A DNA stretch of 19,778 nucleotides. It comes from Candidatus Caldarchaeales archaeon (GTDB lineage Archaea > Thermoproteota > Nitrososphaeria_A > Caldarchaeales > Wolframiiraptoraceae). The stretch lies in the NCBI GenBank assembly GCA_039630055.1, contig JBCNVN010000027.1, positions 1 through 19,778 on the forward strand, written 5' to 3'. Position numbers: made by a program. Below are positions 1 through 3,000 of this stretch, piece after piece. Numbering within the stretch: the stretch's first letter is position 1; each line of letters begins with the position of its first letter.

Positions 1-3000
1 CTTGGGGCTTCTCTCAGGGGAAGACTGTTTCCAGTGTTATGCCTGGGGCATCTCTGGAGGCGGTCAGCCTCGAACCACTGAGACAATAGACTCCATAGAC
101 ATCATGGAATCCCTTAGACTTTAGACGACTGTAAGCGTTTCAGCGGTCTCAAACGTTACATTAGAGGTTTAGAAGGGTTCTAATGCTTCAGCCAACCTCT
201 ATAGGCTCATGTAGAGCTCCTCACAACAGCCGGGTTCAAGACCCTTAGCCCTCAAAAGATTATGGGGGTGCTCTCCTCAAGGCTTGGCTCGGCCGCATCC
301 TCCAGAGCTTCCTTGAAGTCTTCTCCCAGAGGCTCTGGAGGGCTTGGTGAAACCATAAGCCTAGATCCACCCGGTGTTGGTGGGTGGTGATGGTTTATGG
401 GAGTAGCCTTGCTTGCCGAGCCTTCTCTGGGGAGGAGAACCTTCAGGAGCTCTGCATGAGCCTAGGAGGTGGTGTGTATGGAGTGGGAGGAAGAATGGGA
501 GGAAATTGAGGAGTGTGAAGATCTTGAGGAAGAGGAGGAGTTCGATGAGTTCGATGAGCTCGCAGAGTTCTTCAACAACCAGAGGTGGTGAACGTAGATG
601 GGGATGATGCAGAAAATAAGAGAGGTTTTCGAGGATGCCGTATGTCTTCTACTGCGTCCATCGCATGAAGTGAATCCGATATGGCTTATGATACTTGTCA
701 TCTATCTGCTGATACCAACAATATTGATGTTGATTGGTGAGTGAGGATGAAGAGGTGAGGGATATTGGCTAGGCGAGGTAGATATAGACCAGTGGAGCTA
801 AGAATAAAGCTGTACGAAGAGGTTCTAAGATTATATGAACAAGGATTAGGGTACAAGAAGATTGCTAAGGAGATTGAGAAATTGTATGGTGAGAAGCTAT
901 CTAGATCGACGATATCTTACTGGGTTAAAGGTTTGCATACGCCATACAATGGTAGAAGATTTCCATCAATAGAGTTTCTCAAACCATCACCGCAGCTGTC
1001 GTATATTATCGGAGTGGTGATGGGCGACGGATTCGCAAGGATGAAGAGGAATAAGGGGTACATTGATAACATTATCGAGCTTGAAACAAAAGATATGGAG
1101 TTTATTGCCGAGTTCTCAAGATGCTTAGGGATGGTCTTAGGCAGAGACCCGCCGAGACTGAAATATGATGAAGTGTATCAGCACTATTATGTCTCGGTGA
1201 AAGACAAGACGCTGTTCGAGCTGCTGCATGAACGGGACTTGGAGAAGATAAAGCCCTTCGTAGAGCGCTGCGATGAATGCAAGGCAAGCTTCCTGCGGGG
1301 ATTCTTCGACTCAGAGGGATGCATGAGCAGGAACGCATTAACGGTATGCAATACGAACTACGAGCTGTTGCTATACGTGATGAGGCAGCTGGCAGAACTG
1401 AGCATAGAGGCAGCAGGACCGTACCTGAAAGGGAAAAAGGGGACGGTGCTCAAAGATCCGTGGACGGGAAAAGAATACATTCGTAAAAAAGATTTGTATT
1501 TTGTGAGGGCGAAGAGCCTTCTAACGTTCTATCTGAAGATCGGCTTCACGATCAGGAGAAAGCAGGCGAGACTCGAGGAGCATTTAATAAGACGAGGGCT
1601 ACTACTGCTCGCAAGCCCCCAACCTGCTCCTACCCTTTTTGTCATATTTTACTATATAAGCATTACCGAAAAGTTTATATATTATCGCCCCGGCCGGGAT
1701 TTGAACCCGGGTCCCGGGCTCGACAGGCCCGTATACTAACCGGACTATACTACCGGGGCTCAATATATCTTGTTCTTTAGGTATTTATCAACCTTTATTT
1801 TTTCGTGACCCTGTTTTTCCTTAGATTTGGAGATAGGTATCCTCTCAAGATTTTCAAGGTAGCTCCATTTATTATGTAATATTTTCTCGGATTGTTTTTA
1901 ATTATTTTCCTTTTAGATGGTCTTTTTTTGAATATTAATCTTTATATCTGGTTTCCGTTATTCTTTTTTTGAAGGGTTTAGGTTTGAAAGAATCTTCGGC
2001 TGTAGTTTTTGCTAATATGAAGGGATTTAGAGGGTTTGAGCGAGGCCTCGTACCTATAGGCGGGAAGCCCATGATAGAGTATGTTCTAGATGCTATCCCA
2101 GACCAGGTATCAAACATATCAATAGTTGTTGATAGTGAAGAGAAGGCTAAAGCATATAGAGATCTAGCAGAAAAATATTGGGCTGAGATTATCGTCTTAA
2201 ATACTCTGTCTAAGACTATTAGAAGTCAAATAGACTTCGCTATCTCATCCGCCTCTGGAGAGAACGTACTGATATTACCATGTGATTCACCTTTAGTTAG
2301 TAGAGAGTTTACAAGCTTCTTGATAGAAACTTCAGAAAAATTTTCAGCTGTCTTACCAAGGAATCAAGCTAGAGAGACGGTATATATTATGGCCGCCTAT
2401 CAGAAGAGGCCTTTCATGGAGGCATTCTCGAAGAATCCTGAAGACGATATGGACTCTCTAGTAAAGAAGGTTCAGCGAGTTCTATATCTTTCAAGCAACA
2501 GTTTAAAGATATTTGATGAGCGGCTACTAATGTTTTTAAGAGTGTATAGTCCATCAGATGTTCAAAGAGTAGAAAATATATTGAAGAGAAGGGTATGAAG
2601 ATACTTTGATAAGAGCTTTAATTATATTCTGACAAGATCTATACTCAATACTCTTTAAGGAGAATAATATAATTATCTTAATGAATTAGTTTGAGATTAA
2701 GTCTTGGAAAAATCGATAGAGAATTGTTAGAAGAGGTCGTCTTTAGGAAACTCGGTGCTAGGAGGCGAGACATAATTCTCGGACCATCATTCGGTGAAGA
2801 TGCTGGAGTAATCAAGATAAACAGTAAACATATCGTTGTTTCATGTGATCCGATAACTGGAGCCTTGGAGAAGATAGGCTGGCTTGCAGTACATGTTAAT
2901 GCAAACGATGTTGCGGTATGCGGTGGCATGCCCCGATGGTTCTCCCCCATAATACTCTTAAATAAAGGTTCAGGAAAAGATGAATTAGAGAAGATCGTAG

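Follow-up and report, generated by a model that had tools for sequence, protein, structure and literature searches.

Homing endonuclease genes are viewed as tied to one target site and as spreading only between the alleles of that site, and we know of no ordinary homing endonuclease gene that hops between tRNA genes. The window analysed here, a stretch of 19,778 nucleotides from a Candidatus Caldarchaeales archaeon (contig C20), carries a LAGLIDADG gene that runs tail-to-tail into a tRNA-Asp gene, and relatives of this gene occur elsewhere in the same genome and in related archaea. The genome-wide survey's note had taken them for a mobile endonuclease gene that lands at the 3' flanks of tRNA genes. 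This raises the question of what places such a gene at the end of a tRNA gene: the encoded protein, a larger carrier, another enzyme or chance followed by selection.

The window gene and its predicted product

The ORF (Table 1) encodes a protein of 324 aa and begins with a TTG codon that is preceded by a GGTGA motif. Pfam matched LAGLIDADG_3 in two stretches (1.5e-12). The survey had listed this family as the only Pfam match, which does not stand, as HTH models also match residues 3-57, among them the HTH part of Transposase_mut (22.3 bits; cutoff 21); the N-terminal HTH is doubled in some relatives of the protein. Pfam detected no intein domain, no GIY-YIG domain and, besides the HTH, no transposase domain in the protein, and Rfam found no intron family in the window. 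A total of 451 database homologues, as counted before, are stand-alone proteins in the length class covered, 276-450 aa. The window gene is free-standing, borne neither by an intron nor by an intein, and has its own start and stop.

The AF2 model (pLDDT 87.2) has an order of helices and strands that fits the alpha-beta-beta-alpha-beta-beta-alpha fold twice in a single chain. Its top Foldseek match was I-DmoI (E 5.1e-10, TM 0.72 on the target, ~19% identity in the structural alignment), in agreement with the I-DmoI-like fold claimed earlier. A profile search against the PDB matched PI-PfuI and I-DmoI with E values of 1e-12 to 1e-13, and a single-sequence PDB search with the protein gave no match. 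I-DmoI is the intron-encoded LAGLIDADG homing endonuclease of the Desulfurococcus mobilis 23S rRNA. Like I-DmoI and the endonuclease domain of PI-PfuI, the window protein is archaeal and thermophilic and has the predicted single-chain, two-motif fold, and the catalytic residues D21/E117 of I-DmoI align with its D88/E184. Unlike both, it is free-standing, has an extra N-terminal HTH and is multi-copy, and its gene adjoins the genes with which it is associated instead of being inserted within them. That both catalytic motifs are kept was seen again in an alignment of 27 sequences (motif 1 ..GVVMGDG, motif 2 ..GFFDSEG), with D88 invariant and E184 present in at least 90%.

Table 1 Features at the left end of the window (position 1 is the first nucleotide of the window)
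Feature	Position	Strand	Remarks
GC-rich, very stably folding stretch	195..470	.	20-nt inverted repeat 202-221 / 445-464; z -9.0
Acidic ORF	478..591	+	37 aa, ends ..FFNNQRW (stop); also 5' of copies in G021, G008, G009 and G011
Small hydrophobic ORF	598..744	+	48 aa; homologous small ORFs precede the gene in G011 copies
12-codon remnant	734..772	+	C-terminus of a ~93-aa upstream protein family (ends ..EDEEVRDIG, stop); overlaps the LAGLIDADG TTG start
HTH + double-LAGLIDADG ORF	765..1739	+	324 aa; native-equivalent part is residues 1-280 (765-1604)
N-terminal three-helix HTH domain	792..935	+	residues ~10-57; Pfam HTH matches residues 3-57; model helices H10-25, H30-41, H47-55
LAGLIDADG motif 1	996..1034	+	D88 (codon 1026-1028) invariant; pairs with I-DmoI D21
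LAGLIDADG motif 2	1293..1322	+	E184 (codon 1314-1316) kept in at least 90%; pairs with I-DmoI E117
Read-through tail, residues 281-324	1605..1739	+	non-conserved; pLDDT 40-56 past residue 280; antisense to tRNA-Asp
C-rich then T-rich polypyrimidine tract	1614..1640	+	kept 3' of the gene across the protein family
AT-rich right end of the element	1641..1685	+	abuts the tRNA; gives a T-rich stretch just past the tRNA on the tRNA strand
tRNA-Asp(GTC)	1686..1759	-	ARAGORN and Rfam (64.3 bits); last base N73 is 1686

The ORF and tRNA-Asp are convergent and overlap by 54 nt counting the stop codon, so the ORF does read into the antisense strand of the tRNA gene as reported. The native stop of relatives aligns at residue 281 of the query, and native stops span query residues 281-293. 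By its sequence, the C20 copy has both catalytic motifs intact and has lost its stop codon; the 44-residue tail extends across antisense tRNA-Asp because of this loss, and the overlap of ORF and tRNA is an accident of it. Tails of this kind are found in only four intact copies (L001, L002, L007 and L060), so the earlier statement that the C-termini translate antisense tRNA is correct for these as a description, but the tails are read-through after stop loss. In the same way, real internal stops do exist among the matches, but many of the stops counted by the survey are native ones at residues 281-293, and the share of pseudogenes was overstated because the C20 query reads through its own stop. 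The in-frame TAA of several G008 copies, considered as recoding, is the native stop at residue 281.

Copies in this genome and its relatives

All five copies listed for this genome were matched again: C20 (100% identity to the query), C31:1-762 (72%), C1 (32%), C47 (31%) and C77:400-510, which corresponds to residues 2-38. The C31 copy begins at residue 50 on a contig edge and the C77 piece lies at a contig end; the two do not overlap and may be one copy. The distant copies C1 and C47 have no tRNA neighbour, as found before. A match on C27 was rejected as a family copy, since it consists of HTH similarity only, within an IS6-family transposase.

A hand count of core matches gave 17/35 family genomes with the gene, the same figure as in the survey; the search tally of 25/35 is too high, as it takes in matches that are confined to residues 303-324 and are in fact antisense tRNA-Asp genes. 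In a class-wide genome search the presence is likewise patchy (41/64 genomes). The number of matches per genome varies from 0 to ~30, with many fragments and genuine internal stops, and many copies lie at contig ends, with their left context outside the contig.

Docking at tRNA genes

Of the 112 copies examined in four related archaeal families, 50 are followed within 150 nt of their 3' end by a convergent tRNA gene and three by a co-directional one, while none of 88 copies has a tRNA within 150 nt upstream. The convergent preference described earlier is borne out and is stronger than the survey had it. In family f1, a tRNA lies within 150 nt downstream of 31/59 eligible copies, 28 of them convergent, and 23 of the docked tRNAs were called by ARAGORN and Rfam alike. 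Outside f1, 22/53 copies are docked, all convergent, with one locus (L140) added by Rfam. The docked copies number 2/12 in f2 and 0/8 in f4; the habit of docking at tRNA genes belongs to families f1 and f3 and does not extend to f2 and f4. No tRNA was called within 150 nt of 59/112 copies, three of which carry a T-arm-like motif. Three copies (L009, L017 and L018) face the 5' end of a tRNA, and a single copy interrupts a MarC gene.

As a control, a tRNA of either orientation follows within 150 nt at 19 of 1395 ORF ends of the genome, and a convergent one at 8 (0.6%), two of these eight being LAGLIDADG genes themselves. These measured values replace the hand-reasoned chance bound of the survey. 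Relative to this genome background docking is enriched ~80-fold, a value from related genomes that are not independent samples. The fraction of tRNA hits with a docked copy amounts to 10/43 in G011 and 13/48 in G063. A link to tRNA introns (collaborative homing) was considered and rejected: introns occur in 21/48 docked tRNAs versus 28/43 of the tRNAs of this genome.

The right junction is fixed and the left end is ragged

The element's conserved right end comes within 0-10 nt of the last base of the tRNA in three subfamilies, and does so over more than 20 anticodon identities. In G063, a common end sequence joins six tRNA identities at N73/+1, +/- 2 nt, and right ends of the G011 type and of the G012/G008/G009 type likewise come to within 0-10 nt of the tRNA. 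The docked tRNAs are not alike in their acceptor-stem halves. A strict pattern for the polypyrimidine tract was present in 48/114 copies versus 9/1398 other gene ends and 12/2000 random windows, and its rarity at other gene ends rules out a generic terminator; a looser C/T-tract pattern is uninformative, being present in 289/5000 random windows.

On the left, the ends are ragged, with small accessory ORFs for which no Pfam family was found, the homologue of the 48-aa ORF included. Rfam gave no family for the GC-rich stretch at 195..470, not even with E allowed to reach 1. Only 9/77 copies have strong inverted repeats upstream, so this stretch does not seem to be integral to the element; given its presence beside some copies only, its membership is uncertain. 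The unit was not found to be flanked by terminal inverted repeats, the 3' part of tRNA-Asp was not seen repeated directly in window positions 1-1800 or nearby in the genome, and Pfam found no integrase in the ORFs adjoining the left edge of the window.

The size of the unit was read from repeats and from empty sites. In G063 the repeat unit is ~1.03 kb and the LAGLIDADG gene is its sole conserved long ORF. At tRNA-Cys, an insert of 1.4-1.7 kb lies between flanks that are syntenic with an empty site in this genome, on C5 around 3995 (~70% identical between empty and occupied sites in a MAFFT alignment) and contains just small ORFs and the LAGLIDADG gene. The bounded inserts hold no integrase, reverse transcriptase or transposase, and within 20 kb of the docked copies at the tRNA-Cys site there is neither an integrase nor a repeat of a tRNA fragment. 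The unit is a small cassette, in which the gene does not always stand alone but may have variable ORFs upstream. An empty tRNA-Asp site in a congener, reported before, was found in G012, at L035 around 3478, where homology to the window begins at exactly 1686. A metagenome contig of 1025 nt is 99% identical to 1686-2264 and diverges left of 1686; no placement of the diverging letters was found in this genome. Phage and plasmid collections gave no match.

Apparent movement between tRNA genes

Copies group by genome and not by tRNA identity, in a tree read without support values. Between copies at different tRNAs, identity reaches 98% over 243 nt and 88% over 864 nt. This genome-wise clustering indicates that the element moves between tRNA genes, and it appears to have hopped from one to another; the clustering could also come from gene conversion among copies instead of fresh insertion. 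Empty and occupied alleles at the same tRNA site, together with patchy distribution and decay, speak indirectly for a putative homing function.

Discussion

The enrichment, the precise junction, the genome-wise clustering and the small insert support the survey's view of a mobile endonuclease gene that lands at tRNA 3' flanks. We consider it likely that the copies are a small selfish cassette at tRNA ends which is driven by a free-standing gene for an HTH + I-DmoI-type endonuclease, and that it spreads as follows. The cassette would enter tail-to-tail at the end of a tRNA gene, at or a few nt past the discriminator base N73; the tRNA would be kept intact and the AT/T-rich end of the element would take the place of the native 3' flank. 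It may spread by ordinary homing, from an occupied tRNA locus to its empty counterpart in another genome, and also, which is unusual, from one tRNA gene to another of different identity inside a lineage. We infer that the enzyme reads features common to tRNA genes, the T-psi-C arm and the GC-rich acceptor end, with the HTH possibly reading T-loop DNA, and that it cuts at the 3' boundary of the tRNA gene. A role of this kind for HTH and T-arm has to be assumed because acceptor stems that differ could not be read by a LAGLIDADG core of normal specificity. Repair of the break would copy the occupied site beginning from the tRNA side, and such one-sided copying would leave the right junction precise and the left end ragged, with variable pieces of upstream small ORFs. 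A more far-reaching version, which we offer tentatively and regard as possible more than probable, would make the HTH-LAGLIDADG nuclease in effect the transposase of a tRNA-end-specific "homing transposon" that reads the universal T-arm and acceptor end of any tRNA gene, cuts at N73/+1 and is copied from an unlinked donor by one-ended repair; it would hold at least a quarter of the tRNA genes in a genome and seed rearrangements. A nuclease guided by protein would in this way have turned into a mobile element that acts genome-wide on one class of sites.

Other explanations have to account for the same observations. Landing could be untargeted, by illegitimate recombination, with survival in the harmless space behind tRNA genes as a safe haven. 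About half of the copies are not beside a tRNA, one lies inside the MarC gene and docking is rare or absent in families f2 and f4, all of which would fit. Selection alone, however, explains neither the single orientation (50 convergent versus 3 co-directional, 0/88 on the gene's 5' side), nor a junction within a few nt of N73 at many tRNAs, nor the unequal use of other intergenic spaces (background 0.6%), and we regard this origin as unlikely. It is similarly improbable that another enzyme acts in trans (such as a recombinase supplied by the host, the transposase of an IS or an RNA-based step exploiting the tRNA end) and that the LAGLIDADG protein is a passenger, or only a DNA-binding or maturase-like factor. 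A precise 3' end with a ragged 5' end resembles copying primed from one end, the junction is the mature tRNA 3' end, the N-terminal HTH is similar to transposase HTH domains and an IS6-family transposase gene of this genome likewise lies 13 nt from a tRNA; but the LAGLIDADG gene is the sole conserved long ORF of the ~1-kb unit, both catalytic acidic residues are retained, which is unexpected for a passenger or a pure binder, and the bounded inserts contain neither a reverse transcriptase nor a transposase.

Integrative elements of archaea and bacteria classically attach at tRNA 3' ends, by means of tyrosine-recombinase integrases and att sites in tRNA 3' halves. The cassette might thus be cargo or a remnant of a larger element, virus or plasmid, with the LAGLIDADG gene having no part in site choice, and the variable upstream small ORFs without assigned function and the off-contig left context of many copies leave room for such a carrier. 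Against it stand the size and content of the tRNA-Cys insert (just 1.4-1.7 kb, small ORFs and the LAGLIDADG gene), the ~1.03 kb repeat unit of G063, the lack of any directly repeated 3' part of tRNA-Asp in window positions 1-1800 or nearby, a junction past N73, unlike att sites inside the tRNA, and the lack of matches in the phage and plasmid collections. Since the bounded insert is small and has no integrase, the caveat of a larger carrier is largely removed, and we judge this origin very unlikely. Least credible, and very nearly dismissed by us, is the idea that the host has domesticated a LAGLIDADG protein as a DNA-binding factor that serves it at tRNA genes. WhiA combines HTH and LAGLIDADG in the same way and WhiA structures are among the weaker fold matches (E 1e-6 to 1e-5), but the presence in 41/64 genomes is patchy, genomes carry from 0 to ~30 copies, fragments and broken ones being common among them, the catalytic residues are kept, copies are polymorphic between congeners at one and the same tRNA, and a conserved single-copy orthologue with degenerate motifs across the order was not observed.

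The selfish tRNA-end cassette, which we prefer, shares traits with several known systems. Like tRNA-targeting integrative elements, it uses the 3' ends of many tRNA identities and leaves the tRNA functional; unlike them, it measures 1.0-1.7 kb and has its junction outside the tRNA. It is not an integrase-borne integrative element, as it has neither an integrase nor tRNA-derived direct repeats at both ends, and it is not an insertion sequence or DNA transposon, as there is no transposase beyond the HTH, no flanking terminal inverted repeat was found and the left ends are ragged whereas the right ends are fixed. Ty1/Ty3 and the Dictyostelium TRE are tRNA-gene-targeted, RNA-mediated retrotransposons that recognise the Pol III machinery and land mostly upstream. 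The cassette resembles them as a multi-copy selfish element for which tRNA genes in general are safe landing marks, but it has no reverse transcriptase and inserts at the DNA end of the gene. Phage T4 SegB is a free-standing GIY-YIG homing endonuclease encoded in the T4 tRNA gene cluster. Its 27-bp recognition site is described (PMC2330249) as including a conserved 11-bp motif of the T-psi-C stem-loop of tRNA genes. This mode of recognition is the one proposed here, a likeness in proposed behaviour only; both are free-standing endonuclease genes among tRNA genes, but unlike the phage GIY-YIG enzyme the cassette belongs to the LAGLIDADG family, resides in a cellular chromosome with tens of copies per genome and shows fixed tail-to-tail insertion past N73, spread among unlinked tRNA loci.

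A full-text literature search found no prior description of a LAGLIDADG cassette that docks at tRNA ends. The LAGLIDADG gene of this group of hot-spring archaea seems to exploit tRNA gene ends as an entire class of sites and to multiply inside chromosomes in the manner of a transposon while essential genes stay intact. If the enzyme does read tRNA features and cut at a fixed position, it would link homing with transposition, would provide a thermostable nuclease with a modular HTH + LAGLIDADG recognition logic and would account for assembly breaks and rearrangements beside tRNA genes in these archaea.

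The window protein and its copies in the genome

The LAGLIDADG ORF of the window and the gene for tRNA-Asp(GTC) are convergent and overlap by 54 nt. LAGLIDADG_3 was found by Pfam in two stretches of the encoded protein (E 1.5e-12) but not, as the genome-wide survey's note had it, as the only domain, since residues 3-57 gave helix-turn-helix (HTH) matches as well (top, the HTH part of Transposase_mut, 22.3 bits, cutoff 21). The AlphaFold model (27 family members as input, mean pLDDT 87.2) opens with three helices at the N-terminus, joined by a poorly ordered linker to a double alpha-beta-beta-alpha-beta-beta-alpha core; its confidence falls away beyond residue 280. 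Foldseek again placed I-DmoI first (E 5.1e-10, TM 0.72 on target), and the family profile matched PI-PfuI and I-DmoI with E-values of 1e-12 to 1e-13. In the profile alignment, D88 and E184 correspond to D21 and E117 of I-DmoI; D88 is invariant and E184 conserved in at least 90% of 27 sequences, and both catalytic motifs are indeed kept, as claimed before. Because of this fold, the profile matches and the retention of D88 and E184, the protein appears to be a competent LAGLIDADG nuclease of the single-chain type to which a DNA-binding domain has been added. A second HTH, within an N-terminal extension, is present in the C1 copy of this genome (G000) and in certain other relatives. With 451 homologues at E ≤1e-5 and 486 representative clusters at E ≤1e-10, the family is large. 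The homologues come from Aigarchaeota/Nitrososphaerota metagenome bins and are labelled 'LAGLIDADG family homing endonuclease' or 'intein-encoded DNA endonuclease-like protein'.

The reading frame of relatives stops where residue 281 of the window protein lies (..RGLL*). An "in-frame TAA" of several copies is this native stop, and the share of matches with stops reported earlier therefore overstates decay, although true internal stops and frameshifts are common. In the window copy the native stop is lost and 44 unconserved residues follow, up to a TAA within the antisense tRNA; the tail over tRNA-Asp is read-through. The earlier view that C-terminal tails translate antisense tRNA is right for the window copy, but only four intact copies (L001, L002, L007, L060) run into a tRNA in this way.

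The C31 and C77 pieces do not overlap and could be opposite ends of a single copy. The C31 copy converges on a tRNA at C31:763-850 (Rfam 60.1 bits); no tRNA was found downstream of the C1 and C47 copies. The region C31:737-967 is orthologous to positions 2922-2979 of locus L039 (G012:C27), where the copy of the related genome G012 abuts tRNA-Val; in G000 the additional, intron-bearing tRNA lies between the C31 copy and tRNA-Val. A match on C27 was rejected as a family copy since only its HTH is similar, within an IS6-family transposase gene (C27:7076-8245, L006:889-2058, minus strand; DDE_Tnp_IS240 E 3.3e-23). Because that gene ends 13 nt from a convergent tRNA-like call, it is a second kind of mobile gene parked at a tRNA end.

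Table. Family copies in G000, the adjoining tRNA gene and small ORFs upstream of LAGLIDADG genes
Feature	Position	Strand	Remarks
Window copy, LAGLIDADG ORF (C20)	765..1739	+	324 aa, TTG start; genome match
tRNA-Asp(GTC)	1686..1759	-	ARAGORN; Rfam 64.3 bits
C31 copy	C31:1-762		72% identity; begins at residue 50, contig edge
C77 fragment	C77:400-510		residues 2-38, contig end
C1 copy	C1		32% identity
C47 copy	C47		31% identity
~93-aa protein ORF	C77, L007, L045, L031, L032, L033		stop overlaps LAGLIDADG start
Remnant of 93-aa gene	window 734-772		12 codons
~49-aa hydrophobic ORF	G011 copies; window 598-744
Acidic ORF	window 478-591; L011, L033, L047, L008

Association with tRNA genes

Copies were placed by tblastn with residues 1-300 and tRNAs by ARAGORN (introns allowed) and Rfam. 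In the host's own family (f1), the flanks of 30 loci were joined by 60 hand-picked from the match table, omitting matches to the tRNA-derived tail alone; 59 of 76 copies or fragments had the 3' part of the gene and at least 150 nt beyond it. A tRNA lay within 150 nt in 31 of these 59 (28 convergent, 3 co-directional; 23 called by both ARAGORN and Rfam). A class-wide search of 64 genomes from four families gave matches in 41, and 55 near-full-length copies outside f1 were hand-picked from 150 listed matches, a further 106 lying outside these. Among 53 eligible ones, ARAGORN found a convergent tRNA within 150 nt in 22, and Rfam added L140. By hand count among the matches listed, 21/33 copies were docked, with the gene end adjoining a tRNA gene, in f3, 1/12 in f2 (2 with L140) and 0/8 in f4.

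Pooled, this hand-picked sample holds 50 convergent and 3 co-directional cases in 112 copies, and in none of 88 was a tRNA found in the 150 nt before the start. As a control, a tRNA follows within 150 nt at 19 of 1395 ORF-derived gene ends in G000; 8 of the 19 are convergent, and two of these 8 belong to LAGLIDADG genes. The preference for convergent tRNA 3' flanks proposed in the survey is thus borne out (50/112 versus 8/1395), with copies from related genomes not counting as independent trials, and so are the many tRNA identities, as docked tRNAs have more than 20 anticodons. The idea that tRNA introns protect from the enzyme was dropped (introns in 21/48 docked tRNAs versus 28/43 overall).

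No tRNA was called near 59 of the 112 copies. ARAGORN overlooks some intron-bearing tRNAs; a T-arm motif is present in three further 'tRNA-less' copies, and the tRNAs of L101 and L113 are truncated at the contig end. One G011 copy interrupts a MarC gene, with positions 4-57 of the Pfam model MarC to one side and 108-202 to the other, and L009, L017 and L018 face a tRNA 5' end. Because of the tRNA-less copies, the MarC insertion, the 5'-facing copies and the rare or missing docking in f2 and f4, tRNA docking is a trait of only part of the protein family. The MarC cassette (L041, G011:C55, 2526-4185) consists of a small ORF and the LAGLIDADG gene, away from any tRNA. Copies of f4 (L148-L155) and f2 (L136-L147) keep a C/T-rich tract behind the gene with a tRNA neighbour rare or absent, and in several of the f4 copies a short, strong hairpin directly precedes the start. 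In L062 (G008:C9, 2345-2643), a decayed copy and an archaeal RNase P RNA gene are convergent and 379 nt apart; a copy in L120 (G058:C6, 1062-1180) has a 5S rRNA gene nearby, a tRNA-like stretch separating the two.

Contig ends of G000, G011, G063 and others hold numerous copies and numerous tRNA genes; in G011, five tRNAs on the minus strand are within 160 nt of the start of a contig, and many of the fetched loci end at the copy. The family evidently breaks short-read assemblies beside tRNA genes, and copy counts are therefore lower bounds.

Junctions and size of the unit

Downstream of the conserved gene end (..GFTIxRKxxRLEExL) follows a C-rich, then T-rich tract, whose strict pattern was found in 48/114 copies versus 9/1398 other gene ends and 12/2000 random windows. 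Past it, an AT-rich terminal sequence, common within subfamilies, reaches up to the tRNA. In G063 one end sequence stands directly after the discriminator base N73 at tRNA-Thr, Gly, Pro(CGG), Ser, Asn and Pro(TGG), with 1-2 nt variation at three of the six. The G011-type end lies 0-2 nt from the tRNA (Thr, Asn-like, Cys, Asp) and the G012/G008/G009-type end 3-10 nt (Ser, Val, Ala, Asp). Spacing is very regular in G011 and G063, where docked copies adjoin 10/43 and, among the matches listed, at least 13/48 tRNA hits. Because the element end opens with a T-rich stretch when read on the tRNA strand, it would replace the tRNA's terminator.

The G063 copies have ~1.03 kb in common, a stretch that begins ~40-80 nt before the gene start and ends at the tRNA junction. 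Degenerate copies at tRNA-Cys in G009 and G011 have both flanks syntenic with C5 of G000, where the site is empty; in these inserts (1.4 and 1.7 kb) the LAGLIDADG gene is accompanied only by an acidic small ORF (..NRRW*) and small membrane ORFs, with no integrase. Their size and content, together with the failure to find a repeat of the tRNA 3' part at the window's tRNA-Asp, argue against a larger integrative element as carrier, for which the survey's note had left room. The window protein had no match in phage or plasmid collections.

Upstream content differs among copies, and left ends begin at varying points, whereas right ends are fixed. No Pfam family was found for the upstream small ORFs. 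The tail of the ~93-aa gene (..EEVxYIG*) is also present at C37:484-1378 and C8:29809-30994 (L095, L096), followed by unrelated proteins of 287 and 303 aa without a Pfam family, and C37 and the window both extend from one 77-base end of contig C9; the cassette neighbourhood thus seems to be made of modules, the downstream gene having been exchanged. In metagenome contig X3 record 18, window 379-601 is joined to 797-867 and 299 other letters replace 602-796, a variant cassette with another module between acidic ORF and LAGLIDADG gene. Upstream of only some cassettes lies a GC-rich stretch (window 195-470, 56% GC versus ~40% nearby; also C37:150-520 and L008:1080-1480), closed by a 20-nt inverted repeat (202-221/445-464). 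Its folding z against shuffles is -9.0 (two relatives, -6 to -10), the score is good on either strand, and pairing is kept while arm sequences vary among copies; no Rfam family was found for it. A strong upstream inverted repeat is present in 9/77 copies.

Movement between tRNA genes

In a tree of 55 copies (FastTree, LG+gamma, midpoint root; read by topology, without support values), copies group by genome or genus and not by tRNA: the tRNA-Asp copies of G000, G009 and G011 fall into three clades, and the G012 copies at Ser, Val and Pro are mutual closest relatives. Gene conversion among copies could produce the same tree. Copies at different tRNAs reach identities of 98% (243 nt), 93% (267 nt) and 88% (864 nt); flanks that are orthologous between congeners share ~70-85% identity. 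The tRNA-Asp site is occupied in G000, G008, G009 and G011 and empty in G012 and at a second G009 gene, in line with the empty congener site described earlier; the tRNA-Cys site is occupied in G009 and G011 and empty in G000. Such differences in occupancy between congeners show real gain or loss.

A 1025-nt metagenome contig from the window's own study matches 1686-2264 at 99% identity (6 of 579 positions differ), and its 446 nt left of 1686 are unlike the window, giving a different junction at precisely the tRNA end. No place was found for the 446-nt part. In G012 (L035, G012:C52) tRNA-Asp follows the Sua5 gene by ~125 nt; in G000 they are on separate contigs (C1:38933-42240; window 1686-5182), and LAGLIDADG copies, C1:42593-43696 and the window copy, stand at the two breakpoints. 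This split is a rearrangement, both ends of which coincide with family copies.

Discussion

The analysis establishes a plausibly catalytic nuclease gene, docking that is oriented, site-class-specific and nucleotide-precise, a small integrase-free unit, and spread across tRNA identities. From this we infer that the nuclease itself chooses the site and, because the acceptor ends of docked tRNAs differ, that the shared target feature is the T-psi-C arm plus the GC-rich end. The extra HTH on its flexible linker is a candidate reader of the T-psi-C motif; the LAGLIDADG core would then cut ~17 bp off, at the gene's end. Repair from the tRNA side, finished by illegitimate joining, would fit the fixed right and ragged left end. 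According to PMC2330249, SegB, a free-standing GIY-YIG endonuclease of the phage T4 tRNA cluster, has a 27-bp site that includes a conserved 11-bp T-psi-C motif; the recognition proposed for the window protein would be analogous.

A full-text literature search, judged by its listings and abstracts, turned up no description of LAGLIDADG genes at tRNA ends in archaea, and in passages of the Caldiarchaeum genome paper (PMC3082918) the one homing endonuclease mentioned is borne by an rRNA intron. Each ingredient (the nuclease family, free-standing homing genes, T-arm recognition) is already known; new is their combination, a LAGLIDADG core with chromosomal multi-copy spread and fixed docking directly after N73 (N73|+1) at many tRNA genes.
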